From: an uncultured Alphaproteobacteria bacterium
Lineage (GTDB): Bacteria; Pseudomonadota; Alphaproteobacteria; Micropepsales; Micropepsaceae
DNA: 64,000 nt
Reading direction: 5' to 3'
NCBI GenBank assembly: GCA_903862715.1
Contig: CAIOYY010000003.1
Span: 1,687-65,686, forward strand
Below the pieces are notes generated by a model, which was given only the letters and a program-made list of their open reading frames with translations, did not search any database and was not told the DNA's origin. This document shows positions 3,748-46,119 of the stretch, in pieces. The number at the start of each line of letters is the position of its first letter. Position 1 is the stretch's first letter. A program made the position numbers and the translations under genes.

Positions 3748-3765
3748 GACATGGAGTATGCGTTT

Positions 3766-7542: not shown

Positions 7543-7557
7543 GCGGGCAGCCCGATC

Positions 7558-8635: not shown

Positions 8636-9343
8636 ATGCTGACGACACCGTTTCGTCTGGCTGTGGCGGGTATCGCCGTAACCGGAATCGCGTTGTGGTC
8701 GATGCAGCTTCTCGACACCGAAGCGCCGCCGTCTGGCCCGGGTGAGACTGACGTCGCCGCGATGGAAGCTTATGCCGCACAGGCCGCGGCCGAACAGGAC
8801 GCCGCGCGCGATGCGCTGGCGATGGGAAAATGGCCGGCGTTAAGCGCCGATCCGGGCTCCCCCGTTCTCGGCAACACAGACGGCGATGTCGTCATCGTCG
8901 AGTTCACCGATTACACCTGCACCTTTTGCAAGGCGGTGGAGCCACGGCTGCGTGAAGCGGTGGCCGCGGATGGCCGCGTGAAATTCGTCATCAAGGAATT
9001 TCCCATTCTGACGCCGGAATCGCTGATCGCCGCGAAAGCGGCGCTGGCCTCGGTCAACCAGGGCAAGTACGAGGCCTACCATCAGATCATGATGGATTTT
9101 CGCGGGACGCTGGACGAGGCGGCGATCTTCGAGATGGCGGCGCGCGTGGGCCTTGATGTGGCGCAATTGCAAAGCGACATGGCAGCAAGCGGCATCACCG
9201 ATCAGATCATCGCCAATTTCAATCTGGCGCGGGGCATACGCATTTTCCAGACGCCGACCTTTCTGATCGACGGCCATATCGTTACCGGGCCTTCAGCCGA
9301 GATCGATTTTCCCGCAGCCTTTGCGGCGGCGCGCGAGGGCTAA
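8636..9343 (+). CDS. DsbA-family thiol:disulfide oxidoreductase, membrane-anchored or secreted
   Basis: N-terminal hydrophobic segment. Thioredoxin-type CxxC in FTDYTCTFCKAVEP. C-terminal QTPTFLIDGH. Confidence 0.8.
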   Translation: MLTTPFRLAVAGIAVTGIALWSMQLLDTEAPPSGPGETDVAAMEAYAAQAAAEQDAARDALAMGKWPALSADPGSPVLGNTDGDVVIVEFTDYTCTFCKAVEPRLREAVAADGRVKFVIKEFPILTPESLIAAKAALASVNQGKYEAYHQIMMDFRGTLDEAAIFEMAARVGLDVAQLQSDMAASGITDQIIANFNLARGIRIFQTPTFLIDGHIVTGPSAEIDFPAAFAAAREG

Positions 9344-9457
9344 GCGCGCGCCTGTCGTTTATTGCGGAGCAACATCATGCGCCTTGGCCTTCGCCCCGTT
9401 GCCTAAGGCGGATCAACATGGGCAACATGCGCCCGCGTTTCTCGCCTGCAGGGGCAC

Positions 9458-10492
9458 ATGATCTCTCACCGCTTCAGCCTTCCTTCATTACGGTTTTGCG
9501 CTCTTGCCGCTTTTCTTGCGATGCCGGGTACGGCCGTGGCGGCGGATGAGGGTTTTTTCGCGGGCGAAACCATCACGCTGATATCGTCATCCGATGCAGG
9601 CGGCACCGCCGGCACCTATGCGCGGATCGTGAGCGATTTTCTGGGGCGGCACATTCCGGGCGCGCCTGTGGTCGTCATTCAGTTCATGCCGGGCGCGGGC
9701 GGCGCGGTAGGCGCCAATTATTGTTTCAACCGCGGCACCAAGGATGGGCTGACGCTGTGCCATATCCAGCCCGGCCTGCCGCATCTGCAACTTCTCGATC
9801 CGCGCAATGTGCGGTTCGATGTGCGTGAATTCTCCTATCTCGGGCGGACATCGACCACGAACAGCGCCATCTATGTCCGCTCGGAAAATCCCGCCATGAC
9901 TCTTCTCGATGTGCGCGAGCACCAGGTCATTCTGGGTGCGACGGGCAAGGCTGCCGACACGTTTGTCGATCCCACGGTCATCAACAACGTGCTTGGGACC
10001 AAATTTGAACTGATCGTCGGTTATCCGGGCGGCGGCGAAATCGATTACGCCATCGAGACCGGCGAGATCGAGGGCGATGCCGGACCGGTGATGTCGACCT
10101 TTCTGCGGCATCAATCCTGGATCGACGACGGCATGATCCGCTTTCTGGTGCAGACCGGCAGCGTACGCCATCCGCTGCTTCCGGATGTTCCGCTGTTGCA
10201 GGAATTCGCGCGCAATGACGATGAGCGCGCGATGTTCGACTTTCTCTCGCTGCGCTCGGAGATCGGCTACACGCTCATCGCGCCACCGGGCGTGCCGGAG
10301 GATCGCGTCGCGGTGCTGCGCAAGGCAATGGCAGACATGCTGGCCGATCCGGAATTTCTTGCGGCGGCGGCGCGCATCAAGCTCGACGTCATCCCCGCCA
10401 CGGGGGCGGCCGTCGAAGCGTCGATCGACCGCGTCTTCGCCACACCGCCCGATATCATCGCAAGATTGCACGAAGCGCTGGACATCCGCTGA
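9458..10492 (+). CDS. Periplasmic solute-binding protein, tripartite tricarboxylate transporter (TctC/Bug)-like
   Basis: Signal peptide ending AVAAD. AGGTAGTYARIVSDFLGRHIPG...MPGAGGAVGANY resembles Bug-family N-terminal blocks. No partner tctAB genes are adjacent. Confidence 0.5.
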   Translation: MISHRFSLPSLRFCALAAFLAMPGTAVAADEGFFAGETITLISSSDAGGTAGTYARIVSDFLGRHIPGAPVVVIQFMPGAGGAVGANYCFNRGTKDGLTLCHIQPGLPHLQLLDPRNVRFDVREFSYLGRTSTTNSAIYVRSENPAMTLLDVREHQVILGATGKAADTFVDPTVINNVLGTKFELIVGYPGGGEIDYAIETGEIEGDAGPVMSTFLRHQSWIDDGMIRFLVQTGSVRHPLLPDVPLLQEFARNDDERAMFDFLSLRSEIGYTLIAPPGVPEDRVAVLRKAMADMLADPEFLAAAARIKLDVIPATGAAVEASIDRVFATPPDIIARLHEALDIR

Positions 10493-29098: not shown

Positions 29099-29452
29099 CT
29101 ATTCGCCCTGCAGCAGCGGAATGGAATCGGGATCGGGCGAGGCGGGAATGGTCAGGAGGTAGGCGTAGATATCGGCCGCGTCCCGCGCCGGGAGCACATC
29201 CGCCGAATAGGGCGGCATGACCTGACGCGGCGTACGCAGCTGCAGTTCGAAAGCTTCGAAGGCGAGCGGCGGCGCAATCATCGGCCCTGCGGCGCCACCC
29301 TGTCCGACATAGCCGTGACATTGATAGCAACCGACGGCCACAAAGAGCTGGCCTCCGTGATCAGCATTTCCCGCCGGCGCGGTTTGCGCGGAAGCGGAGC
29401 CGGTGAAAAGCGCGAGCGCGCCGAAGACAATGGAGATCGTGCGAGCGGACAT
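29099..29452 (-). CDS. Monoheme cytochrome c, partner of ThDP enzyme module 1
   Basis: Sec-type signal (ALALFTGSASAQ), CYQCH, Met-ligand context MPPY, C-terminal IYAYLLTIPASPDPDSIPLLQ. It starts 14 nt after the stop of 29467..31389. Confidence 0.8.
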   Translation of the reverse strand: MSARTISIVFGALALFTGSASAQTAPAGNADHGGQLFVAVGCYQCHGYVGQGGAAGPMIAPPLAFEAFELQLRTPRQVMPPYSADVLPARDAADIYAYLLTIPASPDPDSIPLLQGE

Positions 29453-29466
29453 GGGTGGCCCCTGAC

Positions 29467-31389
29467 TTAGCGCGGTTGGGTGACGACATCGACGAGCGCG
29501 GGTTCACCGCGCCGCACGACATCGAGGGCGCGGCGAAGCGCCGGTCCGAGATCGACAGGATTGCTGACCGGGCCTTCGGCAAAGACGCCCATACCCTTCG
29601 CCACCGCCGCGTAATCGATATTGGGCTCGTTGATCGCAGTGCCGATATGCGCGCGGTCGATGCCGCGATTGTGGCGGGCGGCCATGCGCTGGATATGCAT
29701 GGTTTCCTGATGATAGCCGCGATTGTTGTGAATGATCATCAGAATGGGAATCTGATGATGCGCGGCAGTCCAGATGACGCCGGGCTGCATCATGTAGTCG
29801 CCGTCGCCGACAATACCGATGGTCAAACGGCCTAGAGCGCGATTGGCGAGCGCCGCGCCGACGGCGGACGGCGCGTTGTAACCGACGCCAAAACCGCCTG
29901 ATGTACCGAGATAATTGTAATAGTGATTCATCGTCCAAAGCCGGTTCGGCCAATAGCTCTGGAACTGACATTCGGTAGCGATCGTGTATTCGTCGTTTTT
30001 GATCTGATCCCATAGTTCCGCGGCGAGACGTGCGGTGCTGATGGGGCTGGCCTCCCAGGCGCGCGCCGCTTCGACGCGCGTGGCCTCGGCAAGTCCGCTC
30101 GTGGCCATGCGCAGACGTTCGCCGCGCGTGCGGAACGAGGCTTTCGCGCCGCGTTTCACCGCTTCCGTCAGATAGGGCAGCGTGGCTTCGGCGCTGGCCG
30201 AGATTTCAATATCGGCAGCGGCATAACGCTGCGACGCGCCGTAATTTGAACGCTGCGACAGTGTTGTGGTGCCAAGACGCACAACCCGCGTCTGGGGGCG
30301 CAGCCGCGATACGGCATTGCGTTCGACCGTATCGGCGAGGTTGTTGACCATACCGAACAGATCGCGCGCTTCCAGCGCCAGAACGAGATCGGCCGCCCGC
30401 AGGGTCGGGCCCGCGATCTCCGTGTGGTTCAGCGGATGCTTGTTGGGGAAGTTCATGCGCCCGCGCGTGTCGATGACGGGGGCCTGAAGGGCTTCGGCGA
30501 GTTCGACCAGAAGCGGAACCGATTCCATGCTGGTGCCGAAGCGATCGACGACGATCACCGGATTTTCGGCATTGCACAGCATGTCGGCGATTTCCTGCAC
30601 CACGCCGCTGTCGGCACCCACCTTGGTGATACGCCCCATGCGCGGGACATGGAGCTGCTCCATGTGTTCGGGATGCACTGCCTCTTCCTGGTGGTCGGCA
30701 TCGGCAACGAGCAGCGTCGGGCCCGGAGAACCCGTAACGGCGGCCTGATAGCAGCGCGCCGCGGCATTGGAGAAATCGCGCAGCGAGGGCGGTTGTTCGT
30801 CCCATTTGACGAAATCGCGCACCATCTGCGCCTGGTCGATGGAGGCATGGGCGGATTCGGCGCCCGGACGGCGCGTCCATTCGCTGATCGAATTGCCGGC
30901 GATGACATAGACCGGCGTCTGATCGGCAAAGGCGTTATAAATCGCCATCGTCGCGTGCTGCAGGCCCACCACGCCATGCACCAGGGCCGCCATCGGCTTG
31001 CCGGTGATGCGCGCATAGCCGATGCCATAATGCACCGCTGAATCTTCATGCAGCGCGGTCAGAAATTCCGGTTTGGAATTGCCGCCATAATTGATGATCG
31101 ATTCCTGCAGCGAGCGGAATGTCGAGGCAGGGTTCGATGCGATGTATTCGATGTCGAGTGCTTTGAGCACATCGACCATGTGATCGCTGCCGCAGGTATA
31201 GCCCTCGGGAAGCGGCGTCGCTTCGCCGGGAGGATTAACCTCGCCCGCGGCATTCGGCACCGCCGGTACCGATGCGGCCTGCGCCCTGGCGGGGCTGCCA
31301 TTCAATGCGACGGCAGCAACGGCCGGAGCCGCAGCGGCGCCCGCGAGGAACTGACGGCGCTTGATTTTGGACTGGTCGGCTCCCGACAT
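29467..31389 (-). CDS. Thiamine diphosphate-dependent enzyme (ALS/POX/BFD superfamily) with twin-arginine signal, module 1
   Basis: ATG at 31389 preceded by GGAGG. KRRQFLAGAAAAPAVAAVAL...ARAQA. PYR-domain LHEDSAVHYGIGYA. ThDP-Mg motif GDGDYMM..(24)..HNNRGY. Confidence 0.8.
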   Translation of the reverse strand: MSGADQSKIKRRQFLAGAAAAPAVAAVALNGSPARAQAASVPAVPNAAGEVNPPGEATPLPEGYTCGSDHMVDVLKALDIEYIASNPASTFRSLQESIINYGGNSKPEFLTALHEDSAVHYGIGYARITGKPMAALVHGVVGLQHATMAIYNAFADQTPVYVIAGNSISEWTRRPGAESAHASIDQAQMVRDFVKWDEQPPSLRDFSNAAARCYQAAVTGSPGPTLLVADADHQEEAVHPEHMEQLHVPRMGRITKVGADSGVVQEIADMLCNAENPVIVVDRFGTSMESVPLLVELAEALQAPVIDTRGRMNFPNKHPLNHTEIAGPTLRAADLVLALEARDLFGMVNNLADTVERNAVSRLRPQTRVVRLGTTTLSQRSNYGASQRYAAADIEISASAEATLPYLTEAVKRGAKASFRTRGERLRMATSGLAEATRVEAARAWEASPISTARLAAELWDQIKNDEYTIATECQFQSYWPNRLWTMNHYYNYLGTSGGFGVGYNAPSAVGAALANRALGRLTIGIVGDGDYMMQPGVIWTAAHHQIPILMIIHNNRGYHQETMHIQRMAARHNRGIDRAHIGTAINEPNIDYAAVAKGMGVFAEGPVSNPVDLGPALRRALDVVRRGEPALVDVVTQPR

Positions 31390-31521
31390 CGTGACCTCCG
31401 ATAACATCTTTTTGTTTGGACATTATCAGCAGACGGGAGGTGCCAAAAGTCAATTGGCCGCCCCGAAAAACCGGGACGGCCAATGAACGCAGGTCCTATG
31501 AAATCGCAGGCGTGAACAGCG

Positions 31522-31875
31522 TTACTGCAATTGCTGCAACAGCGGTATGGAGGCGGGATCGGGCGTCGCGGGAATGGACTCCAGGTAGGCATGGATGTTC
31601 TGCAATTCCTCGTCCGACAATGTCGCCGGTGTGAAGGGCGGCATGTCGCCCGAAGTCTGGCGGACGAAGGTGCTGAACGCATCAAAGGCGAGCGGCTCGG
31701 GTGCGAGCTTGGGGCCCGTGCCGGCGCCTTGTCCTTCGTAGCCATGGCAGGTGTAACAGCCGAAGCGGACAAAGGCTTCTTCCCCGGCGGCGGCATCCGC
31801 CGCGAAAGCGGAACCGGCGATCAGGATCGGAACCAGAATTGCGGCCGCTCCCGCAAGCAAACGAATCGAACGCAT
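31522..31875 (-). CDS. Monoheme cytochrome c, partner of ThDP enzyme module 2
   Basis: ATG at 31875, 10 nt after the upstream stop, with a GAGGGGA RBS. Signal peptide, CYTCH, MPPF, IHAYLESIPATPDPASIPLLQ. Confidence 0.8.
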   Translation of the reverse strand: MRSIRLLAGAAAILVPILIAGSAFAADAAAGEEAFVRFGCYTCHGYEGQGAGTGPKLAPEPLAFDAFSTFVRQTSGDMPPFTPATLSDEELQNIHAYLESIPATPDPASIPLLQQLQ

Positions 31876-31885
31876 GGTTTTCCCC

Positions 31886-33871
31886 TCAGCGCGGTTGAGT
31901 GATGACATCGACGAGCGCGGGCTCGCCGGCTTTGACGATATCAATGGCACGGCGCAGCGCCGGCGCAAGGTCGTTCGGATTCTCGATCGGACCGATGCCG
32001 GCAACGCCCATGGATTCGGCCAGTTTGGCGTAATCGACATTCGGGTTCTCGATGGTCGTCGCCACCCGCCATGAACCATCGCTCAGGCCGCGCTGACGCC
32101 AGCTCGCCATGCGCTGCAGATGCATGACTTCCTGATGATAGGCGCGGTTATTGTGCATGACGTTGAGCAGCGGAATCTTGTGATGCGCCGCTGTCCACAA
32201 TGCGCCGGGGGCATACATGCAGTCGCCGTCGTTCTGGATGTTGACGACGAGGCGGCCGTGCGGACGATGGGCCAGCGCCGCGCCGACCGCAGCGGGAAGG
32301 CCGTAGCCGATGCCCGCGCCGCCGGGACCGCCGATCCATTGATAATATTTGTCGAAGGTCCAGACACGGTGCGGCCAGTTGCTGATGCTCTGGTCGCGTG
32401 ACACCAGCGCCCAGTCTTCGTTCTTGATCAGCTCCCACAATTCGAAGGAGAGGCGCGCGCCGGAGATCGGGCTGGCATTCCAGGCGCTCGCCGCGGCATC
32501 CGCCGCCACGCGCGAACGCGCGGTGTTATAGGCATCGCGCGCCGCCTGGCCGCGATTGTCGATGCGCGTGCGCGCGGCACCGTCGAGGAGCATGCGCACC
32601 GCCTCGATGAGCGAAGGAAGCGTCGCTTCCGCGTCCGCCGCGATGGCGATATCGACCGGCTGATAGCGCTGGAAGTCCTGATAATTGGCGCGGATATACA
32701 CATCGCCCGTGCCGATGCTGACCATGCGTGTGCCTTCGCGCACAATCGGCCCCTGCTGGGCATGGGCCGTGTCCGAGAAATCATTCACGGTGCCCCAGAA
32801 ATCCGTGAGCTCCATGCCAACGACGACATCGGCGCGGCGGATCGCTGCGGCGCCGCGTGCCGCGAGGTGATGCATGTTCGGGAAGTTCATGCGGCCGCCC
32901 TGATCGACGACCGTCGCCTGCAGAAGTTCGGCGAGTTCCACCATAAGGGCGAGGCCCGCCGGGGTACGCGCGACGCGATCGACGACGAAGACCGGATTTT
33001 CCGCCGCGACGAGCATCGCCGCGGTTTCGCGCACCGCATTCGATTCGCCCTGCGGCGGCGTGGGAAGGGCGACTTTCGGAATCGAGAAGTTTTCGAAATG
33101 TCCCGGCTCCGGAACGCCTTCCTGCAATTCTTCGCCCATCACAATGAGAACCGGCTCATAGGGAGGCGTCATCGAGATGCGATAGGCCCGCACCATGGAT
33201 TCAGAAAAATGCTGCAACGATCCCGGCTGATCGTCCCATTTCGTGAAATCGCGGATCATCGCAGCGGGGTCTTGCGCCGCGTGCGTGGTCGGAACGCCCG
33301 GACGGCGCACATTCGCGTCCATCTCGTTGCCGATCATCATCAGAATCGGCGCGCGGTCGCACCAGGCGTTGTAGACGGCCATCGCGGCGTGCTGCAGACC
33401 GACCGTGCCGTGGCAGAGCGAACCCATCGGCTTCAGCGCCACCTTGAAATAGCCATGCGCCATCGCGGTGCCGGACTCTTCATGCATGGTGGTGAGCAGT
33501 TCGGGCATTCTGTTGCCGCCGTAATTCACAATCGATTCGTGAATGCCGCGGCAGCTGGAGGCCGGATTGGTGACGATATATTCGATATCGAGAGTTTTCA
33601 GGACGTCGACCATATAGTCGGAGCCCGGCTTGCCGTTCTGCGTGCCCGGATAAGCGGGCGCGGATACGGAAGCCGTCGCGACTTCGGCCTGCGCCATTAC
33701 GGTGGAGGGCCGCATCGCGCTGGGCGCTGCGGGCGCGGGCGCACCCGGCGGCAGAATCGCGGACTTGGCTTCCGTGGAGACGACCGCAGCGCCTGCGACG
33801 GCGACGCCCGCCATGAATTTGCGCCGGTCCACCTTCGTTACGGCCTGCTTCGATTTCGACTTATCCGTCAT
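31886..33871 (-). CDS. ThDP-dependent enzyme with twin-arginine signal, module 2
   Basis: ATG at 33871 (MTDKSKSKQAVTKVDRRKFMAGVAVAGAAV). TMHEESGTAMAHGYF. NDGDCMY..HNNRAYHQE. Confidence 0.8.
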   Translation of the reverse strand: MTDKSKSKQAVTKVDRRKFMAGVAVAGAAVVSTEAKSAILPPGAPAPAAPSAMRPSTVMAQAEVATASVSAPAYPGTQNGKPGSDYMVDVLKTLDIEYIVTNPASSCRGIHESIVNYGGNRMPELLTTMHEESGTAMAHGYFKVALKPMGSLCHGTVGLQHAAMAVYNAWCDRAPILMMIGNEMDANVRRPGVPTTHAAQDPAAMIRDFTKWDDQPGSLQHFSESMVRAYRISMTPPYEPVLIVMGEELQEGVPEPGHFENFSIPKVALPTPPQGESNAVRETAAMLVAAENPVFVVDRVARTPAGLALMVELAELLQATVVDQGGRMNFPNMHHLAARGAAAIRRADVVVGMELTDFWGTVNDFSDTAHAQQGPIVREGTRMVSIGTGDVYIRANYQDFQRYQPVDIAIAADAEATLPSLIEAVRMLLDGAARTRIDNRGQAARDAYNTARSRVAADAAASAWNASPISGARLSFELWELIKNEDWALVSRDQSISNWPHRVWTFDKYYQWIGGPGGAGIGYGLPAAVGAALAHRPHGRLVVNIQNDGDCMYAPGALWTAAHHKIPLLNVMHNNRAYHQEVMHLQRMASWRQRGLSDGSWRVATTIENPNVDYAKLAESMGVAGIGPIENPNDLAPALRRAIDIVKAGEPALVDVITQPR

Positions 33872-34048
33872 TATCCATCTCCCGAATCTTTTCGAGATCT
33901 TTCGCCACGCAATGCCCCTGAATGCTATAGCCAAGCCCCGAGACGGCCCGTTCCCTATGAGTTTGGGCGCTTTATTGGAGCAAAGCCTAGCAGCGCTTCA
34001 CCCGGTCGGCCAGATCACGGCCATTTATTTTACGCGCGTGAACGATCC

Positions 34049-34414
34049 TTAATCAGAAAAGACGTCCTGCAGCAGCGGCAGGGTTTCCGGCGCCGGAGGC
34101 TCCGGAATGGATTGCAGATAGGCATAGATTTTTTCGAGATCGGCATCCGGAACGATGCGCGCCGTGAAGGGCGGCATGTCGCCGGTGGAATTGCGCACAA
34201 AGGTCGAGAAGGCTTCGTAAGACAAAGCGGTGTGCGCAATCTGCGGTCCGTCGCGACCGCCCTGACCGAGATACGCATGACAGCCCCAGCAGCCGGAACG
34301 GCTATAGACGGCCGCGCCATCCTCGGCCGCCGCATCGGCAGCCTGTGCGGCGCCCGCGAAGAACAGCGAGGCAAGAAGCGCGGATACAAAACCCGGAAGT
34401 GTTTTACGGTGCAT
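34049..34414 (-). CDS. Monoheme cytochrome c, partner of ThDP enzyme module 3
   Basis: ATG at 34414 with GAGGAA 6 nt upstream. Signal peptide, CWGCH, MPPF, IYAYLQSIPEPPAPETLPLLQ. Confidence 0.8.
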   Translation of the reverse strand: MHRKTLPGFVSALLASLFFAGAAQAADAAAEDGAAVYSRSGCWGCHAYLGQGGRDGPQIAHTALSYEAFSTFVRNSTGDMPPFTARIVPDADLEKIYAYLQSIPEPPAPETLPLLQDVFSD

Positions 34415-34445
34415 GACCATTTCCTCGAAATCCTGACGGGCTGGT

Positions 34446-36425
34446 TTAGCGGGGCTGTGCGACGACATCGATGACGACGGGCTGCCCCGACTTCACGACT
34501 TCAATGCCACGACGGATCGCGGCGGCGAGATCGTTCGGGTCCTCGATCGGACCGATGCCTTCGACGCCCATGCCGCGCGCGAGATCGGAGAAGCTGAGAT
34601 TGGGATTGGTCAGCACCGTACCGATCAGCGCGTTCTGAATCCCGCGCTGCCGCCAGCTCGCCATACGCTGCATATGCATGACTTCCTGATGATAGGCGCG
34701 GTTGTTGTAGATGATGTTGAGCATCGGAATGGAGTGATGCGCCGCCGTCCACAGCGAGCCCGGCACATACATGAAGTCGCCGTCATTCTGTAAATTCACG
34801 ACGAGGCGGCCATGCGCGCGATGCGCCAGCGCCGCGCCCACAGCGGCAGGAAGACCATAGCCGATGCCCTGCCCGCCTGGTCCGCCGATGAACTGATGGA
34901 ATTGTTCGATGGCCCATAGACGATGCGGCCAGAAGGACATGCTCTGGTCGCGCGAAACGAGCGCCCAGTCTTCGTTCTTTATTTGCGCCCATAATTCGGC
35001 GGTCAGACGCGAGGATGAGATCGGGCGCGCATTCCAGGCGTTGGCGGCGGCCTGCTGCAATGTGCGTTCGCGGCCTGCGGTGAAGGCGCGCATCGAATCC
35101 TCGCCGCGTTGCGCGATACCTGCGCGGCGCGCCTGCGGGATCGCCATTCTGACGGCCTCGATGAGCGAGGGCAGCGTGGTTTCGGCGTCCGCCGCGATGG
35201 CGATATCGACCGGCTGATAGCGCTGGAAGTCCTGAAAATTGGCGCGGATATAAAGATCGGAAACGCCAAGGCTGATCAGTTTCGTGCCTTCGCGGACAAT
35301 GGGCGCCCGCGTCTGTTCGGCATTGTCCATGAAGTCGTTGACGGTGCCCCAGTAATCCATGAGTTCGATGCCGAGCACGACATCGGCGCGGCCCACTGCG
35401 GGGCCGCCCATCTGGTAGAGATGATGCGTGTTGGGGAAGTTCATCCGCCCCATGCGATCGACGACCGGCGCGTTCAGCGCTTCGGCGAGTTCGATCATAT
35501 ATTGCACGCCTGCCGGTGTGCGCGCGGCGCGGTCGACGACGATGACCGGGTATTCGGCATTGGCGAGAAGCTGCGCCGCTTCACGCACCGCGTTCAGATC
35601 GCCCTGCGGGAAAGACGGCATCGAGAGACGCGGAATCGTCAGCGGACGCTCCGAATGTATTTCGTGTTCCTGAAGATGCTCCTCCATAGAGATGAGCACC
35701 GGTTCGGTCGGCGGCGTCAGCGCGATCTTGTAAGCGCGCACCATGGATTCGGCGAAATGCTGCAGCGAGCCCGGCTGGTCGTCCCATTTGGTGAAGTCGC
35801 GCACCATCGCGGCAGGATCCTGCACCGTGTGCAGGGTCGGCGTACCGGGAACGCGCGTATCGGCGTCGGTATTGTTGCCGACCATCATGAAAACCGGCAC
35901 GCGGTCGCACCACGCATTGTAGATCGCCATCGACGCATGCATCAGGCCGACCGTGCCGTGACACAGCGCGATGAGCGGCTTGCCCGATACTTTGAAATAG
36001 CCGTGGCCCATCGCCGTCGCCGCTTCTTCATGCGTCGCGGTGAGAAGCTCCGGCATCGCATTGCCGCCATAGGTGACAAAGGATTCGTGGATGCCGCGGC
36101 AGGAGGAAGCCGGATTGGTGATGACATATTCGACGCCGAGCGTTTTCACGACATCGACCATGAAGTCGGAACCCGGTTTGCCATTGACCGTTCCGGGCGA
36201 ACCATCGCTGCCGGCATCGCGCACCGGCCCGGTTTCTGCCGCCAGCATTTGCGCGCTGGGCCGAAGCGCCATGGGCGGCGCGTTCTGCGTGGCGCCCGGC
36301 AGGATCGCCGCCGATGCGCCTTCGCCCACGCTTACCGCCGCGCCCGCTACGGCAACGCCTTTGAGGAAATTGCGCCGATCCACATTGCGCGCGTTCGAAC
36401 GAACTGAATCCGTTTTTCTCGACAT
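34446..36425 (-). CDS. ThDP-dependent enzyme with twin-arginine signal, module 3
   Basis: MSRKTDSVRSNARNVDRRNFLKGVAVAGAAV. ATHEEAATAMGHGYF. NDGDFMY..YNNRAYHQE. Close paralogue of module 2. Confidence 0.8.
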   Translation of the reverse strand: MSRKTDSVRSNARNVDRRNFLKGVAVAGAAVSVGEGASAAILPGATQNAPPMALRPSAQMLAAETGPVRDAGSDGSPGTVNGKPGSDFMVDVVKTLGVEYVITNPASSCRGIHESFVTYGGNAMPELLTATHEEAATAMGHGYFKVSGKPLIALCHGTVGLMHASMAIYNAWCDRVPVFMMVGNNTDADTRVPGTPTLHTVQDPAAMVRDFTKWDDQPGSLQHFAESMVRAYKIALTPPTEPVLISMEEHLQEHEIHSERPLTIPRLSMPSFPQGDLNAVREAAQLLANAEYPVIVVDRAARTPAGVQYMIELAEALNAPVVDRMGRMNFPNTHHLYQMGGPAVGRADVVLGIELMDYWGTVNDFMDNAEQTRAPIVREGTKLISLGVSDLYIRANFQDFQRYQPVDIAIAADAETTLPSLIEAVRMAIPQARRAGIAQRGEDSMRAFTAGRERTLQQAAANAWNARPISSSRLTAELWAQIKNEDWALVSRDQSMSFWPHRLWAIEQFHQFIGGPGGQGIGYGLPAAVGAALAHRAHGRLVVNLQNDGDFMYVPGSLWTAAHHSIPMLNIIYNNRAYHQEVMHMQRMASWRQRGIQNALIGTVLTNPNLSFSDLARGMGVEGIGPIEDPNDLAAAIRRGIEVVKSGQPVVIDVVAQPR

Positions 36426-36594: not shown

Positions 36595-37616
36595 TTAGCG
36601 AATCGGGGGCGCATAAAGGAGCCCGCCTTCGGTCCAGAGCCTGTTCGGGCCGCGCGGGAGATGGGCGGCATCGGCCGCACCGAGATGGCGATCAAAAATC
36701 TCGCCATAATTGCCGGTGGCTTTGACGATGGCCGAAGTCCAGTCGGGCGCAAGGCCCGACGCGATTGGCGGCTCCTGAAAGAAGGAAAGGATCGCGGGGT
36801 CGGTGCTCGCCCGCAGGGCATCCACATTTGCGGCGGAGATGCCGAGCGCCTCAGCATTGACGAGCGCGTGGACAGCCCAGTCCACCACCGCATCGAATTC
36901 ATCGTCGCCCTTACGCAGCAGCGGCGCGAGCGGCTCTTCCTCATATGCCCGGGAAGAATTCTGTAGGCCGTCGCATCCTCTGCGTGCCGGATCACGGCGC
37001 TCGCCAGTTCGGCGTAATCGGCGGTGACCGCATCGCATTGGCCATCGAAGAATCGCGCTTCGGATTCTGCGCGCGTCTGCGTGCCGATGCCGTGAAAGGT
37101 GAGACCGTTCGACTCAAAATAGTGCTGTAACGGCGGGAAGAAATCGGCATAGACGTCGGAGGAAACACAGATGGTCTTGCCCGAAAGATCGGCAAAATTC
37201 TCCACGTGCAAATCGGCGCGGACCAGAAAGGTCTGGCCGTTGTAAAGAAGGACGGGACCGAAATGGACATTGCCACCGACATCGCGGCGGAAGGATTGCG
37301 TGAGGCCGCGGATCACCAGATCGATCTCGTCGTTTTCGAGAAAGAGGGCGAGCGTTTCGGCGGGGGCGAACACGACATTCGGAGCGCCGAAAATCCCCGC
37401 CGCGATGGCGCGGCAGATGTCAGGCTCGAAGCCCTGAAAGGTACCGTCATCCTGCACCTCGGACATGCCGGGTTCCGCGATGGCAACGCCGCAATTCAGA
37501 TGCCCCCGCGCCTTTATGGCGTCGAGCCGCGGCCCCGCATGCGCCGCAGTGGCGATCACGCAGGGACCTAAGACGGCAAGCGCCCTAATTATTGACATAA
37601 AGGGGGTGAGACTCAT
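36595..37616 (-). pseudogene. AapJ/BztA-like general amino-acid ABC transporter substrate-binding protein, frame broken by a 1-nt deletion
   Basis: The N-terminal frame (signal MSIIRALAVLGPCVIATAAHA...AYRILPG) and the C-terminal frame (AYEEEPLAPLLRKGDDEFDAVVDW...GNYGEIFDRHLG...GLLYAPPIR) join only if one base is added in the CCCGGG run at 36948-36953. Confidence 0.75.
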
Positions 37617-37781
37617 CGCGGCCCGTTCGTCGATATTAAAATGTCGAAAGACTGTATGCTTTACGCTCATGACCAGACCGGATTCTAGCACGAGAATGAT
37701 CCGCCGGGACCGCGTCGGAAAAAAGGCGCCGGGAAAGGCGCCGGTATCGCGTATTCGTGCGCACCCACCCCAGGCCGCGCC

Positions 37782-39209
37782 ATGACCCGGATGCGGCGCA
37801 GGGACTTGCTCGCGGCGGGCGGCGCGGTGGCATTGTTTGCACCAGCCCTTGCGCGCGGCCAGATACCGGGGGGCGCGGAAACCATTCTTATTATCGGCGC
37901 GGGGCTCGCCGGCCTTACGGCGGCGCTGCGCCTGCGAGAGACTGGACGGCGCGTGATCGTGCTGGAGGGCCGAAGCGTTGCGGGCGGACGTGTGCGCACG
38001 ATCCGCGATCCTTTCGACAACGGGCTCTATGGCGAGGCGGGCGCCGCGCGCATTTCCGACGTTCACCATTTCGTTCTGCACTGGCTGAATCGCTTTGGCC
38101 TGAACGCCGTTCCGTTTTCCCCGCCGGAGGGACGCACGATCTTCGTCAACGGCGCGGTCAGCGCGTTCTCTGACGATCCGCGCGCGGGCGCGCTACTGGA
38201 ACCGGATTTGCGCGAAGACGAACGTGGGTTTCTGCCCAGCGAACTCGCCAATCATTATCTCGAAGGCCTTCCTGAGAATTTGCAGAGCACGGATGTCGAC
38301 GCCGAAATGCTTGCGGGATGGGCCGATTTCGACGGGGTGACCTGGCCCCAATGGCTGAAAAAACGCGGCGCATCGGACGCGGCAGTGCGGCTTCTGACGC
38401 TGGGCGCGGATTCGAGCGACATCTCGGCGCTTTATGTTTTACGGCAAATTTTCATGCATCGCGCGGGACGCGCCTATTTGAAAATCGAAGGCGGCATGGA
38501 CCGCCTGCCGCGCGCGCTGGCCGATGAACTTGGTGATGATGTCCGCTATGATTGCTGCGTGACGGCGATGGAGCAGACGCGCGACGGCGTCAGCGTTTCC
38601 TACCGCGAGAATGGCGAGACGAAAATTGCTTCGGGCGCGCGCCTCCTGATAACCTTGCCCTTCACGATATTGCGCGACATGGACATTACGCCCGCACTCT
38701 CGCCCGAGAAACGCGCCATCATTTCCGCCATGCCCTACCGGTCGTCCATCCGTTTTCTGTTGCAGAGCGATACAGCGTTCTGGCGGATGCGCGGGCTTTC
38801 GGGCGCCGCGCGCACCAACGCGCCTTGCGAGATATGGGATGCCAGCTTCGGCCAGCTCAGCGTTCATGGCCTGTTGTCGGTGACCGCTGGTGGGCGCGCC
38901 GACATGCGGGCGCGATTCGCCGAAATGGACGAACAGGCCCAGTTGGCGCTGGGAAGCGATATGGCGGAAGCGGCGTTTCCGGGGTTCAAGAGCCACTATC
39001 AAAAGGGCTTCACGCAAAATTGGACCGACGACCTATGGTCTAAAGGGGCTTTCGCGGTATCTCATCCGGGCCAGATGACGAGATGGGGTGAAAAGGCCTG
39101 GACGCCGGAGGGACGCATCCACTTTGCGGGCGAGCATGTTTCGCCGTGGCCGGGATGGATGGAAGGAGCGTTATGGTCTGCCGAAAGAGCAGTACAAGAG
39201 TTACTCTAA
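37782..39209 (+). CDS. Flavin-containing amine oxidase family protein with twin-arginine signal
   Basis: MTRMRRRDLLAAGGAVALFAPALARG. Dinucleotide fold IIGAGLAGLTAALRL...VLEGRSVAGGRV. The C-terminal HFAGEHVSPWPGWMEGA is typical of the amine oxidase family. Confidence 0.8.
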   Translation: MTRMRRRDLLAAGGAVALFAPALARGQIPGGAETILIIGAGLAGLTAALRLRETGRRVIVLEGRSVAGGRVRTIRDPFDNGLYGEAGAARISDVHHFVLHWLNRFGLNAVPFSPPEGRTIFVNGAVSAFSDDPRAGALLEPDLREDERGFLPSELANHYLEGLPENLQSTDVDAEMLAGWADFDGVTWPQWLKKRGASDAAVRLLTLGADSSDISALYVLRQIFMHRAGRAYLKIEGGMDRLPRALADELGDDVRYDCCVTAMEQTRDGVSVSYRENGETKIASGARLLITLPFTILRDMDITPALSPEKRAIISAMPYRSSIRFLLQSDTAFWRMRGLSGAARTNAPCEIWDASFGQLSVHGLLSVTAGGRADMRARFAEMDEQAQLALGSDMAEAAFPGFKSHYQKGFTQNWTDDLWSKGAFAVSHPGQMTRWGEKAWTPEGRIHFAGEHVSPWPGWMEGALWSAERAVQELL

Positions 39210-39229
39210 AGGCCCGATAGGGAGGGGAA

Positions 39230-39685
39230 ATGAATATCTTTTTGCTTATTCTGCACGGCCTGTGTGCAGTCGCCCTTCTGGGCGCGCTCACGCATCAGGC
39301 GTTTTCCACCGTATGGCCACGAAAACCGGGCGAGACGGGTTTTGTCGCGCGGTATCGCGGTGCGAACGGCGTCGGTTACACCAACGCGATTGTGGTGCTG
39401 TATATTCTGACCTTCGTTCTCGGCGGCTATATTTACATCTTCTATCGCATCGAAGTGCGCCCGCCGCTGGAAGTACTGGGCGATCTGCCGACCATTGGGA
39501 CATTCGAGATCAAGGAGCATTTCCTCGCCATCGCGCTCGGGATGCTTCCTGCCTATTGGTATTTCTGGAAAAGACGGCCCGAAAACAAAATGGCCCGCAC
39601 TGGCACCACGCTGTTGCTCGCCTTCGCCGTCTGGTTCGGCTTCATCGCCGGACATCTCGTGAACAATGTGAGAGGTCTCCTATGA
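39230..39685 (+). CDS. Small integral membrane protein, about 4 TM, His-containing, unknown family
   Basis: 151 aa, starting 20 nt after the oxidase stop. Hydrophobic segments at roughly residues 2-22, 50-72, 95-112 and 123-145. His residues at positions 9, 22, 97 and 141. Confidence 0.55.
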   Translation: MNIFLLILHGLCAVALLGALTHQAFSTVWPRKPGETGFVARYRGANGVGYTNAIVVLYILTFVLGGYIYIFYRIEVRPPLEVLGDLPTIGTFEIKEHFLAIALGMLPAYWYFWKRRPENKMARTGTTLLLAFAVWFGFIAGHLVNNVRGLL

Positions 39686-40029
39686 AAACCGAAACCATGG
39701 CGCGCGCCTTTCCCGCCTTCGCGGTCGGCTTCACGATCTATTATGCGATCGCCTTCGAATATAATTGCTGCTACCTGCCAGCCTTCACCTATTACCCGGC
39801 GATCAACGAGTTCGTGCCCTTCTTTGCCACCGGCAATGACGAAATCGGCCCCCCGATGCATTGGTATGGCTGGATGGTGAATGCCGCGCTGGCCGGGGCC
39901 GCTTTGGCCGTCATTTCATTGCTTTTGCCCGCGAAGGCTACGGAAAAGGCCTGGGGCGTACTGGCCTGGGCCGTGCCGCTGGTCGGCATGGGGGCAATGG
40001 TCTATTTCGACCGGCTCTTTTTTATCTGA
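39682..40029 (+). CDS. Small integral membrane protein, about 3 TM, unknown family
   Basis: ATG at 39682 overlaps the preceding stop (ATGA). MKTETMARAFPAFAVGFTIYYAIAF...WYGWMVNAALAGAALAVISLLLP...VLAWAVPLVGMGAMVYF. Confidence 0.5.
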   Translation: MKTETMARAFPAFAVGFTIYYAIAFEYNCCYLPAFTYYPAINEFVPFFATGNDEIGPPMHWYGWMVNAALAGAALAVISLLLPAKATEKAWGVLAWAVPLVGMGAMVYFDRLFFI

Positions 40030-40108
40030 AGTCAGGGGATTATATTCCCGCTGAAGTTGAAGGGCCAATATGCGTCGAGACGCACCGAGGCCTTACAGAG
40101 GTGACAGG

Positions 40109-40531
40109 ATGCGCAACACGGGAACGTTAAGGGGCCTTACGGTAGCGTTCGCCCTTGCCGGAACGGCAGCGCCCGCGCTGGCCAATGGCGGCGACTTCTT
40201 CGCGGAATTTGCGGCGCAATTGGCCGCAGAAAACGGCGTCGGCCCGGCCTATTTCGGCTTTGTCCGCGATGAGCAGGGCCGCACCGTGCAGGGCGCCGCC
40301 GTAACAGCCACAATTATGCCCAATGGGTCCGCCATAACAGTACGGACGGATGTTCTGGGCCATTACAAGGTTTCCGGTTTCGTCGCCGAAATCGATCCGG
40401 CGAGCGTCGAGATCAGCTGCTCCAAGCCGGGCTACGCCCAGGTTTCCGCAGCGCGGCGTCATACCCGCAATCCCGATGCGCCCGTGGAAACGGATTGTTT
40501 ACTGGCACCAGTGACCGCAGAGGCGTCTTGA
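40109..40531 (+). CDS. Secreted protein with a carboxypeptidase-regulatory-like (beta-sandwich) pattern, paralogue 1
   Basis: ATG at 40109. Signal ...AAPALANGG, then DFFAEFA...YFGFVRDEQGRTVQGAAVTAT...TDVLGHYKVSGF...SCSKPGYAQ...APVTAEAS. Confidence 0.55.
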   Translation: MRNTGTLRGLTVAFALAGTAAPALANGGDFFAEFAAQLAAENGVGPAYFGFVRDEQGRTVQGAAVTATIMPNGSAITVRTDVLGHYKVSGFVAEIDPASVEISCSKPGYAQVSAARRHTRNPDAPVETDCLLAPVTAEAS

Positions 40532-40572
40532 TCGTTTATACTGTGACGATGGGACGAACAGGAGTTACGACC

Positions 40573-41007
40573 ATGAGACACGGCAAGATTACAGGATTAT
40601 GCGCGGGCCTCGCGATGGCCGCTGCCGCCTTTGCCATCCAGCCGGCTTTTGCCAATGGCGGCGACTTCTTCGAAGAACTCGCGCTGCACGCGCTGGAAGA
40701 GAACCCGAATATGGGGTCGCCCTATTTCGGCTTTGCGCGCGATGCGCGCGGACGCGGCGTGAACGGCGCGACCGTTACGGCGACCGTGAAGGCAACCGGC
40801 GAAACCAAATCGGCCCAGACCAATATTCTCGGCCACTACAAGCTTTACGGCTTCGACAAATCGATCAGCTCGGACGACGTTGAGCTGACCTGCTCCAAGG
40901 ACGGCTTCACGCAGGCGAGCATGGTGCGCGAAGTGATGGAAGACCGTCCGATGCAGCCGGTCGAGGCCAATTGCGTGATGGCGCCGGTTACAGCAGACGC
41001 GTCCTAA
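40573..41007 (+). CDS. Secreted protein with a carboxypeptidase-regulatory-like pattern, paralogue 2
   Basis: ATG at 40573 preceded by AGGAG. Signal ...QPAFANGG, then DFFEELA...YFGFARDARGRGVNGATVTAT...TNILGHYKLYGF...TCSKDGFTQ...APVTADAS. Confidence 0.55.
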   Translation: MRHGKITGLCAGLAMAAAAFAIQPAFANGGDFFEELALHALEENPNMGSPYFGFARDARGRGVNGATVTATVKATGETKSAQTNILGHYKLYGFDKSISSDDVELTCSKDGFTQASMVREVMEDRPMQPVEANCVMAPVTADAS

Positions 41008-41029
41008 ATTCAGACCAAAGCGAGATGTG

Positions 41030-41059
41030 AAAAGCCGGGCCCTTCAGCCCGGCTTTTTG
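41030..41059 (+). terminator. Rho-independent terminator closing the 37782-41007 operon
   Basis: aaaagccgggc-ccttca-gcccggcttttt. Confidence 0.8.
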
Positions 41060-43670: not shown

Positions 43671-43854
43671 ATTTTTTTTGCGCGCGCCCGCGGGTGTTTC
43701 TCCCGCGCGGTGCATTCCATTGATGTTTTTGATTATCGGGGAGGCGGCCTAGTTTGGCCGTCTCGTCGCTTTGGCGTAGCCTTTTGGAAGGGCGCTGCGG
43801 CCTTGCAAACGAGTGGACGGATGCTATGACGTCCCATTGCAGGAAGAGATTGTG

Positions 43855-46119
43855 ATGACGTCTCAAGACGATATCTCTCCGGTCCTTCATTCGACGAATG
43901 ATGTGCCCGAACGGGACAGCGATCCGGCAGCACCAACGCTCGCGGAGCGCTTTCGCACGGTACGCAGCGAGACCGAGACGCTGGCTGCGCCCTTGTCGAG
44001 CGAAGATCAGGCCATTCAATCCATGCCGGATGCGAGTCCGACCAAATGGCATCGCGCCCATGTCACCTGGTTTTTTGAAACCGTTCTGCTGAAACGTTTT
44101 GCGACCGGCTATCGCGTCTTCGATCCGAGCTTCGCCTACCTGTTCAATTCCTATTACGAGGCGCTCGGAAAGCGTCATCCCCGTGGCGAACGCGGGCTAA
44201 TTACGCGGCCAAGCGTGGCGGAGGTCGGGAAATACCGCGCGCATGTCGACCGCGCGATGATCGCGATGCTGGAAGACACCGCGTTGGCAGAAGACCCCAA
44301 GGTGGCCGCGCTGACCGAACTCGGGCTGCATCACGAGCAGCAGCACCAGGAATTGCTGCTGACCGATATTCTCCATGCCTTTGCGCAGAACCCGCGCCAC
44401 CCCGTTTATAGCCCGCATCTGCCCGCTCTCGTGCGCGGGGCGAAGCCCATGCGTTTCATCGAGATCGCAGGCGGCGTGGTTTTCACAGGGCATGACGGAA
44501 GAGGCTTCGGCTTCGACAATGAATTTCCACGTCACCGGACCTATCTTGAGCCCTATCGCATCGCGGATCGTCCCGTGACCAATGGTGAATGGATCGCGTT
44601 CATTGAAGCGGGCGGCTATCGCAATCCGCTTCTGTGGCTGGCGGATGGCTGGTCGCATGCGGTGGGCGGAGAATGGAATGCCCCCCTTTACTGGCGCGAA
44701 ATCAACGGCGCGTGGCACAGCATGACATTGTCGGGATTTCGCCCTGTAGATCCCGACGCACCTGTGACGCATGTCAGTTTTTACGAGGCAGACGCCTATG
44801 CCCGCTGGTGCGGAAAACGCCTGCCGCGCGAAGCGGAATGGGAACACGCGATGGCCGTGGCGGGCGACAACGAAGGCCATTTTGCGGGAAGCCGTTATTT
44901 CCGGCCGCTTGCCGCGCAGGATCATGGCAGGCCGCTGAAGCAGATGATCGGCGATGTCTGGGAGTGGACATCGAGCGCCTATACGCCCTATCCCGGTTTT
45001 GAACCGTTCAGCGGATCGGTCGCCGAATACAACGGCAAATTCATGATCAATCAGATGGTGCTGAAGGGCGGCTCCTGCGCAACGCCGGAAGATCATATTC
45101 GCCCGAGTTACCGTAATTTCTTCTACCCGCAGCAGCGTTGGCAATTCACCGGCGTGCGTCTGGCGGAAGATGTTCGGGTTGCGAGACCGCGCCTGCAGGA
45201 AGTTGAAAGCGATCTTATGACGGCGGTGCGGGAAGGATTGTCGGCAACGCCAAAAAGCCTCCCCTGCAAATATTTCTACGATGAGGAAGGCTCGCGCCTG
45301 TTCGATGCCATATGCGGACTGCCGGAATATTATCCGACGCGCACCGAGATTGCGCTTCTGAAATCCCTTGCGCCGGAGATGGCGGCGCGTGTTGAACCGG
45401 GCACCGCGCTGGTGGAATTCGGCGCAGGGATGGAGACCAAGGCCGAAATTCTGTTGGGCGCGGCAAGGAATGTTTCTGCGTATGTTCCGATCGAGATCAG
45501 CACAACGCATCTTGCGGCGCTGACCGAACGCGTGACGGCGAAATACCGCCGGCTGAAGGTGCTTCCGGTCGCGGGGGATTTCACGGTCGATGTCCGCCTT
45601 CCCGCCGCGATCATTTCAATGCCACGGCTCGGTTTCTTCCCTGGATCGACTATCGGTAATTTCGAACCGTCCGACGCGATCGCGCTTCTGCAATCAGCGC
45701 GGCGCATCCTTGGAGCCGAAGCGCAATTCCTTGTCGGGGTCGATCTCATCAAGGAGAAAGACGTGCTTCTAGCGGCCTATGACGATGCCGCCGGAATTAC
45801 CGCCGCCTTCAACAAAAATCTTCTCGGGCATATCAATCGCCGACTCGATAGCGATATCGACCTGACGGCGTTTTCGCATCGCGCGATCTGGAACGAGGAA
45901 AGGAGCCGTATCGAGATGCATCTGGTCTCGGCATGCGAGCAGACGCTTTCCATCGGGGGTGACGATTTCGTCCTGAAGAAGGACGAGACCATCCACACCG
46001 AGAACGCGCACAAATACACAGTCGACGGGTTCACTGCGCTGGTGCGTGACGCGGGGTGGGACGTCGTCAAAACATGGCAGAGCGACGCGCCGCGTTTCGC
46101 CGTTTTTCTGCTGCGTTAG
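43855..46119 (+). CDS. egtB/egtD: Fused ergothioneine biosynthesis protein: EgtB-like sulfoxide synthase (N-terminal) plus EgtD-like histidine N-alpha-methyltransferase (C-terminal)
   Basis: N-terminal part: DinB-type TKWHRAHVTWFFE, LGLHHEQQHQELLLTD, and FGE-sulfatase-type GDVWEWTSSAYTPYPGF. C-terminal part, from about 45180: LSATPKSLPCKYFYDEEGSRLFDAICGLPEYYPTRTE...FFPGSTIGNF...AYDDAAGITAAFNKNLL. There is no stop between the two parts. Start is ATG at 43855, or GTG at 43813 or 43852. Confidence 0.8.
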   Translation: MTSQDDISPVLHSTNDVPERDSDPAAPTLAERFRTVRSETETLAAPLSSEDQAIQSMPDASPTKWHRAHVTWFFETVLLKRFATGYRVFDPSFAYLFNSYYEALGKRHPRGERGLITRPSVAEVGKYRAHVDRAMIAMLEDTALAEDPKVAALTELGLHHEQQHQELLLTDILHAFAQNPRHPVYSPHLPALVRGAKPMRFIEIAGGVVFTGHDGRGFGFDNEFPRHRTYLEPYRIADRPVTNGEWIAFIEAGGYRNPLLWLADGWSHAVGGEWNAPLYWREINGAWHSMTLSGFRPVDPDAPVTHVSFYEADAYARWCGKRLPREAEWEHAMAVAGDNEGHFAGSRYFRPLAAQDHGRPLKQMIGDVWEWTSSAYTPYPGFEPFSGSVAEYNGKFMINQMVLKGGSCATPEDHIRPSYRNFFYPQQRWQFTGVRLAEDVRVARPRLQEVESDLMTAVREGLSATPKSLPCKYFYDEEGSRLFDAICGLPEYYPTRTEIALLKSLAPEMAARVEPGTALVEFGAGMETKAEILLGAARNVSAYVPIEISTTHLAALTERVTAKYRRLKVLPVAGDFTVDVRLPAAIISMPRLGFFPGSTIGNFEPSDAIALLQSARRILGAEAQFLVGVDLIKEKDVLLAAYDDAAGITAAFNKNLLGHINRRLDSDIDLTAFSHRAIWNEERSRIEMHLVSACEQTLSIGGDDFVLKKDETIHTENAHKYTVDGFTALVRDAGWDVVKTWQSDAPRFAVFLLR

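Follow-up and report, generated by a model that had tools for sequence, protein, structure and literature searches.

In the 64,000-nucleotide stretch of DNA analysed here (the window), which comes from contig CAIOYY010000003.1 of an uncultured alphaproteobacterium of the Micropepsaceae, a plus-strand operon of five genes (g1 to g5, 37782-41007) encodes a predicted exported L-amino-acid-oxidase-type flavoprotein, two small membrane proteins and two secreted beta-sandwich proteins. Seen from the oxidase gene, the linkage to the membrane pair g2-g3 is near-obligate in metagenome loci, and the genomic evidence speaks for the exported flavoprotein, g2-g3 and the beta-sandwiches forming a complex, whether physical or functional. 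Moreover, the trio of g2, g3 and a beta-sandwich gene also occurs with other partners, and we favour, at a little short of an even chance, its reading as a generic module in the membrane that accepts electrons from periplasmic redox enzymes or docks them. An electron-transfer role is favoured because most of the alternative partners carry haem c and because stand-alone units of the module include a c-type cytochrome.

A scan of metagenomes with a profile of oxidase orthologues returned 80 loci (38-71% identity), 63 of which were informative, having at least 300 nt downstream of the oxidase. In 58 of these 63, g2 was found downstream: immediately after the oxidase in 48, commonly with a 4-nt overlap, and within 2 kb in 10 more, mostly behind an intervening beta-sandwich gene. 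The clear exceptions without a linked g2 include the most divergent oxidases (38-39% identity); the oxidase-g2 arrangement itself spans 40-71% identity and three gene orders, and reaches alphaproteobacterial, acidobacterial and gammaproteobacterial bins. Indeed, co-conservation of the gene order, proposed as a check when the operon was first annotated, was found to hold across phyla.

Three architectures were distinguished by gene order and by identity to g1. Type A, to which the window belongs (65-71%), has repeated pairs of a cytochrome c and a thiamine enzyme together with a gene for an AapJ-like binding protein, all divergent from the oxidase, which is followed by g2, g3 and two sandwich genes. 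Type B (46-49%) shares these upstream genes and continues as oxidase, sandwich, g2, g3 and sandwich, so that a second beta-sandwich copy accompanies the oxidase in both types. Type C, which is acidobacterial-like (40-45%), comprises oxidase, g2 and g3, then a membrane-anchored sandwich, a convergent AapJ-like gene and a cytochrome-c'-like gene; exceptions within this type are L127, L128, L141 and L153, where the cytochrome-c'-like gene immediately precedes the oxidase, in the same orientation. The AapJ-like gene adjoins the oxidase in most oxidase loci, always on the opposite strand.

A relative of g2 was detected in 465 of 185,579 species genomes scanned, nearly all of them metagenome-assembled (Alphaproteobacteria, Burkholderiales, Acidobacteriota, Binatia and others) and almost all representing uncultured soil and freshwater bacteria. 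Neighbours were counted in the 80 genome loci returned by this g2 scan, in which the core consists of g2, then g3 and usually then a beta-sandwich gene. Only nine of these loci contain the oxidase; given this and the variety of the other partners, the membrane genes are not dedicated to the oxidase, as the first-pass annotation had described them. The commonest partner is a protein combining CarboxypepD_reg, a CxxCH motif and a beta-propeller, present within 3 kb in 39 loci and directly upstream of g2 on the same strand in 26. It is secreted, measures 550-830 aa, and has a single conserved CxxCH and a propeller of the virginiamycin-B-lyase type (Vgb). This uncharacterised family is often multi-copy, with four genes in tandem in L015 (about 2000-9960), and further examples are found in L019 (7577-9967), L031 (8297-9967) and 36 other loci. 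Furthermore, 11 loci encode a cytochrome-c'-like protein (about 160-200 aa) that matches cytochrome c' weakly and whose C-terminal CxxCH is invariant; its gene is co-operonic with stand-alone g2-g3 modules. Altogether, a haem-c or flavin partner is found within 3 kb in 54 of the 80 loci. In some Alphaproteobacteria, one or two genes for DUF1761 membrane proteins are located directly upstream of stand-alone g2-g3 (L088 and L089, 7034-7874; L012 and L014, about 9460-9890).

Solute-binding proteins also recur beside the trio, an NMT1/SsuA-like protein on the same strand in 22 of the g2 loci and an AapJ-like protein in 12. One alternative is that g2-g3 and the adjacent binding protein form a new small uptake system for the substrate or product of the neighbouring periplasmic enzyme. 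The binding-protein genes found in 34 of the 80 loci and in most oxidase loci speak for it, and in size and helix count g2 resembles the small subunits of the tripartite ATP-independent periplasmic (TRAP) and tripartite tricarboxylate (TTT) transporters. However, the membrane pair adds up to only seven helices, the cluster encodes neither a large permease nor an ATPase, the AapJ-like gene never shares the strand of the oxidase, and many module loci contain no binding protein, so that we consider an uptake system very unlikely.

The layout of the operon agrees with the first-pass description of a tightly spaced unit closed by a terminator, since the open reading frame (ORF) listing confirmed five plus-strand ORFs at 37782-41007, with intergenic gaps of 20, -4, 79 and 41 nt. 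The flavoprotein gene g1 (37782-39209, 475 aa) is followed by g2 (39230-39685, 151 aa), g3 (39682-40029, 115 aa; 4-nt overlap with g2), g4 (40109-40531, 140 aa) and g5 (40573-41007, 144 aa). Each of the five is matched by numerous homologues that keep this order elsewhere, and hence they are regarded as real genes and not chance ORFs. The intrinsic terminator on the plus strand (41030-41059) is the hairpin AAAAGCCGGGC-CCTTCA-GCCCGGCTTTTT, which folds at -25.6 kcal/mol (z = -5.3), with none of 200 shuffles folding as well. A consensus terminator scan did not list it, because its T-run pairs with the upstream A-run. The same five genes are present at 99.9% identity on several public contigs from uncultured Pseudomonadota, and the nearest named relative is a Micropepsaceae genome in which g2 is 70% identical. 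A promoter scan upstream of g1 gave nothing useful, and an Rfam scan of the whole window returned no match.

The first gene had been proposed to encode a protein with the flavin adenine dinucleotide (FAD) fold of amine oxidases and a twin-arginine signal, and both assignments stood. Residues 42-475 match the Pfam family Amino_oxidase (PF01593) over profile positions 1-443 of 443 (2e-51; 176.1 bits against a cutoff of 19.8), and two FAD motifs, the N-terminal IIGAGLAGL (GxGxxG type) and the C-terminal contact HFAGEH, are invariant in seven orthologues. The closest solved relatives are L-amino-acid oxidases, namely reconstructed tetrapod ancestors (1e-45) and the snake-venom enzymes (1e-36 to 1e-30); matches to monoamine, putrescine and nicotine enzymes are far weaker (about 1e-16 for the NicA2 type). 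The carboxylate-binding Arg of the GxMR motif is kept, with GEAGAARI of g1 aligned with AELGAMRI of the ancestral L-amino-acid oxidase, and R90 is invariant in the orthologues; at the position of the second carboxylate contact, a Tyr, g1 has Val (SVT aligned with SYT). Taken together, these features identify g1, at the level of sequence, as an L-amino-acid-oxidase-type flavoprotein and thus as a new member of a known enzyme family.

In regard to export, g1 begins MTRMRRRDLL, and its N-terminus MTRMRRRDLLAAGGAVALFAPALARG has the features of a twin-arginine signal, laid out as MRRRDLLAAGGAVALFAPALARG with an RR-containing n-region, a hydrophobic stretch and an AxA-type cleavage site. The signal peptide covers about residues 1-26 (37782-37859). 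An RR pair precedes the hydrophobic stretch in seven of seven orthologues (RRRDVL, RRRELL, HRRQFL, DRRGFL, TRRQFL, NRRRFL and RRRFLQ), and therefore the start of g1 is not downstream of the motif, a case that had been raised against the earlier assignment. The protein is accordingly predicted to be exported folded, with its FAD, by way of twin-arginine translocation (Tat).

The two membrane proteins had been reported as impossible to place in any family, and broader searches upheld that view. No Pfam or NCBIfam model matched g2 or g3 above threshold, and when the scans were widened to 20 and 52 family members with permissive E-values, the only matches were scattered, inconsistent and sub-threshold (DUF2269, COX15-CtaA and HisKA_7TM). 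Relatives of g2 numbered 569 at 90% clustering, all of them unnamed or "hypothetical" save one with an evidently spurious label, and a filter-free search of 1.84 billion representative proteins yielded 826 clusters at 50% identity for the g2 profile. No true fusion was found among these representatives, all being single-domain proteins of about 150 aa; a few long matches were rejected as fusions and attributed to mis-called starts or frameshifts.

The AlphaFold2 model of g2 (predicted local distance difference test score, pLDDT, 86.6) consists of four long helices (3-28, 47-82, 91-114 and 120-150) and a short one (38-43). By the positive-inside rule, the Arg/Lys-rich loops 29-46 and 114-124 would be cytoplasmic, and both termini and the acidic 74-96 loop periplasmic. 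Among 52 diverse members, H9, L16, G65, Y69, F92, K95, E96 and P107 are invariant, and H22, Q23, Y72, R73, R77, E93, H97, H142, N145 and N146 are 88-98% conserved, with H22, H97 and H142 at 88-90%. Losses of these three His are scattered, and no member lacks both H97 and H142. In the model, H9, Y69/Y72/R73, H97 and H142/N145 share roughly one depth, close to where the four helices end on the periplasmic side, and Gly adjoins two of the His; T21-H22-Q23, Y109, W113 and R123 cluster near the cytoplasmic face. The periplasmic-side pattern fits a cofactor pocket, for instance for a b-haem with its propionates held by R73/R77/K95, or a metal site, and the cytoplasmic-side patch could be a quinone site.

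No match to g2 was obtained at E <= 0.001 when its AlphaFold2 model was compared with the Protein Data Bank (PDB) using Foldseek; the top matches were generic helical bundles of oxidase subunit III (E >= 0.49, template modelling score about 0.56), and hydrogenase cytochrome b reached an E-value of only 1.8. A profile search of PDB sequences also found nothing, and no family profile of cytochrome b of the FdnI/HyaC/cytochrome b561 type matched g2. Subunits III and IV of haem-copper oxidases (CyoC/CyoD type) were rejected as identities for g2 and g3, given a hhalign probability of 0.1 between g2 and Escherichia coli CyoC and the lack of a fold match for g3. A MAPEG-type membrane enzyme was likewise considered and dropped, being unsupported by Pfam or fold matches.

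A further alternative is metal handling of the CopC/CopD kind, with g2 as a CopD-like, His-bearing membrane protein and the beta-sandwich as a periplasmic metal carrier. In one of the g2 loci (L081), the gene of a three-domain multicopper oxidase (8625-10004) ends 2 nt before the g2 homologue, an arrangement that recalls copA-copC-copD. Three of the 52 g2 members match DUF2269 weakly (best E 1.9e-4, below the cutoff), and 15 columns over the H9 motif align with YebZ, a CopD homologue of E. coli (hhalign E 0.07). Nevertheless, not one of these similarities reaches significance, conserved ligands (His, Met or free Cys) are absent from the beta-sandwich, the oxidase requires FAD only, and the multicopper neighbour was seen in a single locus out of 80. 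We give this metal-handling role very little credence, and membership of g2 in CopD was rejected, as no CopD match was obtained and the YebZ alignment is confined to those 15 columns.

The second membrane protein, g3, follows g2 in almost all of the 80 g2 loci. Its first loop is aromatic and conserved, with the motifs FTY(H/Y)P and GPxM(Y/H)WYGW, and it has no invariant His. The AlphaFold2 model (pLDDT 76) has three helices and no fold neighbour, and a word-indexed search returned only nine relatives.

The secreted proteins g4 and g5 had been described as CarboxypepD_reg-like paralogues that begin ANGGDFF after their signal peptides and carry two conserved Cys, and the profile and alignment results bear this out. 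The match of g4 to CarboxypepD_reg (PF13620) scores 36.9 bits (cutoff 32.3), that of g5 falls just under the cutoff (29.7 bits), and the two proteins are 49% identical. Both have AxA signal peptides followed by NGGDFF (ALA|NGGDFF in g4). Among 66 members, the family is characterized by a signal peptide, a Gly-Gly just past the cleavage site and GPxYFGFVKD, and most members have two Cys (CxKxGY ... ExxC). The type C sandwich (L132 7147-7740, and other loci) starts NGQAFF past the signal peptide, as compared with NGGDFF in the window, and has no Cys pair and a C-terminal hydrophobic anchor followed by basic residues. The families of g2 and g3 and this specific beta-sandwich family are without a family model, a structural analogue or a description in the literature; a literature search on DUF2269 and on the combination of CarboxypepD_reg, cytochrome c and propeller found no description of these modules.

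CarboxypepD_reg is fused at the N-terminus of the commonest partner, and the oxidase comes with an extra free copy; for this reason, the beta-sandwich proteins are proposed to be periplasmic docking subunits, with CarboxypepD_reg as the docking element. The same pattern would suit a non-redox scaffold, in which g2-g3 and the beta-sandwich tether periplasmic enzymes to the inner membrane on its outer side, CarboxypepD_reg docks them, and any electron transfer proceeds through soluble cytochromes c. The occurrence of non-redox enzymes among the partners and the lack of a provable cofactor motif are also in keeping with such a scaffold. Even so, the buried cluster of invariant His, Tyr, Lys, Glu, Asn and Arg in the g2 helices exceeds what a passive anchor would need, and we judge a pure scaffold to be improbable.

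In the electron-accepting reading that we favour, g2 (N-terminus out, four helices) and g3 (three helices) would form a small inner-membrane complex. The periplasm-facing pocket of g2, lined by H9, H97, H142, Y69, Y72, R73, R77, E93, K95, E96, N145 and N146, would hold a redox cofactor, most plausibly a b-type haem, and the near-cytoplasmic patch of T21, H22, Q23, Y109, W113 and R123 would be a possible quinone site. Reduced FAD would pass its electrons, directly or via a nearby cytochrome c, to the module and then to the respiratory chain, and by this hand-over the formation of H2O2 would be avoided. The idea that electrons go to the membrane and not to O2, already put forward at first pass, is plausible and is strengthened by the redox nature of most trio partners.

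Flavoprotein amine oxidases were long presumed to be O2-dependent. It is only lately that Tat-exported members of the superfamily were shown to act as cytochrome-c-dependent dehydrogenases, as in the case of NicA2/Pnao with CycN (PMC9396064, PMC12224317), and at least one exported family member has an unknown oxidant, as does the Tat-exported enzyme of Erythrobacter sp. 1414, which reacts slowly with O2 (PMC12224317). Moreover, Slr0782 of Synechocystis, which is L-amino-acid-oxidase-like, feeds the electron-transport chain (PMC2652061), and in Gluconacetobacter an L-amino-acid oxidase with a Tat signal shares its gene cluster with a cytochrome c (PMC5053998).

Several observations weigh against an electron-accepting module. 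The solute-binding proteins near the trio are left unexplained by it, and non-redox partners occur, including a metallophosphoesterase-like protein in 4 of the 80 loci and an amidohydrolase. In certain genomes the trio is surrounded by housekeeping genes and lacks a partner enzyme. Some Alphaproteobacteria carry g2, g3, a beta-sandwich gene and the cytochrome-c'-like gene, or the bare trio, among relA/spoT, rpoZ, tsaD, gpsA and leuS. In g2, H22, H97 and H142 are each substituted in about 10% of members, a site for haem, quinone or metal could not be made out, and comparisons of sequence and fold with cytochrome b, CopD and oxidase subunits gave nothing significant; the 66 beta-sandwich members have no conserved His, Met or CxxCH. 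Furthermore, the operon itself lacks a cytochrome c, the nearest one (34049-34420) being encoded on the opposite strand as the mate of a thiamine enzyme. Of the Tat-exported amine oxidases that have no adjacent cytochrome c, most reacted rapidly with O2 and are true oxidases (PMC12224317). The combination of a Tat signal and an adjacent cytochrome c, taken to mark a dehydrogenase (PMC12224317), is absent from this operon and present in L127, L128, L141 and L153.

In this context, g1 could be an ordinary O2-using periplasmic L-amino-acid oxidase, releasing a 2-oxo acid, ammonium and H2O2, and the module would then serve the envelope in another way, such as coping with the product or the peroxide, and receive no flavin electrons. 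The fast oxidases just cited, the lack of a cytochrome c in the operon, the occurrence of the module without any enzyme partner and the fact that the nearest solved relatives of g1 are true oxidases all point in this direction. On the other hand, the near-obligate and often translationally coupled linkage (58/63) argues for a stoichiometric partner, the other partners of the module are mostly haem-c proteins, which make no peroxide, and relatives carry a cytochrome-c'-like gene in the oxidase operon. On balance, we hold that an O2-using enzyme with an unrelated module is unlikely, and retain electron transfer to g2-g3 as the favoured reading.

The wider gene context is also suggestive, since the conserved cluster around the operon, with its amino-acid-binding protein, exported thiamine enzymes and cytochromes c, points to periplasmic amino-acid oxidation. 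On the minus strand, divergent from g1, the window has the gene of an AapJ-like periplasmic amino-acid-binding protein (SBP_bac_3; 36595-37691), which, compared with the 99.9%-identical contig L001, has lost 1 bp near 36943 and is frameshifted, so that its tblastn match is split over two frames. On L001 the gene is intact (365 aa), and the frameshift stems from a mistake in sequencing or assembly or else marks a recent pseudogene. Between this gene and g1, a GC-rich hairpin (37719-37742, GGCGCC-TTTCCC-GGCGCC followed by T6) is terminator-like on the minus strand, where no upstream gene exists, and its fold energy is unremarkable (z = -0.4).

Further along the minus strand (29099-36425), a thiamine diphosphate (ThDP) enzyme is followed by a small monohaem cytochrome c in each of three tandem pairs, and a fourth cytochrome c is also present. 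The three enzymes (29467-31389, 31886-33871 and 34446-36425), recognized by their Pfam domains on L001, have perfect twin-arginine motifs (KRRQFLAG, DRRKFMAG and DRRNFLKG) and resemble benzoylformate decarboxylase and acetolactate synthase, with every NCBIfam match below its family cutoff. The cytochromes c, recognized by CxxCH motifs, are located at about 29099-29452, 31522-31875 and 34049-34420. These ThDP-cytochrome c pairs are co-conserved with the oxidase in type A and type B loci, and a literature search for exported or periplasmic thiamine enzymes paired with cytochrome c found nothing. On the plus strand downstream of the operon, a 768-aa ORF (43813-46119) matches EgtB (1e-172) and EgtD (7e-113) and represents a fused ergothioneine-biosynthesis protein.

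L-amino-acid oxidases yield 2-oxo acids, and the ThDP enzymes belong to the 2-oxo-acid decarboxylase superfamily. A periplasmic two-step route, in which an amino acid becomes a 2-oxo acid and then a decarboxylated product while cytochromes c take the electrons, is therefore an attractive inference from the encoded proteins, and the 2-oxo acids formed in this lineage would probably be processed by the adjoining exported thiamine enzymes, each with its own cytochrome c. A bolder version of our proposal, which we regard as doubtful, is that the trio is a small inner-membrane complex that bears a cofactor and has no relationship to known cytochromes b, and that it represents a new and widespread family of redox modules through which several kinds of periplasmic dehydrogenase deliver electrons to the quinone pool. 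The candidate donors would be the L-amino-acid-oxidase-type flavoprotein, the haem-c/beta-propeller enzymes and the cytochrome-c'-like carriers, and in the window the module would operate within a fully periplasmic, respiration-linked pathway that leads from an amino acid through its 2-oxo acid to a decarboxylated acid and that also draws on the exported thiamine enzymes and their cytochromes c.

That a periplasmic enzyme can have a partner in the membrane is already known, and it is the partner families that are new here. The locus defines a whole clade of exported L-amino-acid-oxidase-type enzymes. Their conserved partner is not a cytochrome c but a membrane module that lacks annotation, and this module is a concrete candidate for a second, membrane-bound acceptor of exported family members. 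In fact, it may constitute an undescribed periplasm-to-membrane electron route. If it is a redox module, it would provide a new entry point into bacterial respiratory chains, and abundant uncultured groups could respire amino acids in the periplasm, releasing ammonium without peroxide. If it is not, the three protein families still merit family models.

Among known systems, NicA2/Pnao with CycN of Pseudomonas putida S16 (PMC9396064, PMC12224317) is similar to g1 in combining PF01593, a Tat signal, a periplasmic location and an operon-encoded protein proposed to replace O2 as acceptor, and some relatives of g1 also have a c-type cytochrome gene directly upstream. However, the NicA2/Pnao partner is a soluble cytochrome c, whereas those of g1 are a polytopic membrane pair and secreted beta-sandwiches, and g1 itself is nearer to the L-amino-acid oxidases than to the NicA2 type (1e-45 versus about 1e-16). 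The lao-cccA-ridA cluster of Gluconacetobacter diazotrophicus (PMC5053998) likewise encodes an alphaproteobacterial Tat-signal L-amino-acid oxidase, there alongside a gene for an electron carrier. The 2-oxo acid that this oxidase forms, indolepyruvate, enters a further pathway, and decarboxylase-type thiamine enzymes are likewise encoded near g1. Unlike that cluster, the window lacks ridA and the operon has no internal cytochrome c, and genes for g2, g3 and beta-sandwich proteins are not reported in G. diazotrophicus.

A functional model for our proposal is the membrane-bound L-amino-acid deaminase of Proteus, a periplasm-facing flavoprotein that passes electrons to the respiratory chain and is not known to form H2O2, so that amino-acid oxidation on the periplasmic side is coupled to the membrane and not to O2. 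It differs in its D-amino-acid-oxidase-type fold, in being anchored by its own N-terminal helix and in having no known dedicated small membrane subunits. As for membrane partners, MsrP-MsrQ and formate dehydrogenase-N (FdnGH-FdnI) are periplasmic redox enzymes with small membrane cytochrome b partners, and here, too, a Tat-exported catalytic subunit is encoded beside a small His-bearing helical membrane subunit; nevertheless, g2 has a single invariant His and no detectable sequence or fold relationship to MsrQ or FdnI. Finally, the pair CopC-CopD also joins a periplasmic beta-sandwich to a His-containing membrane protein, and one trio locus has a multicopper oxidase upstream, but g2 has no significant similarity to the CopD homologue YebZ and sandwiches of the g4/g5 type have no metal-ligand pattern.

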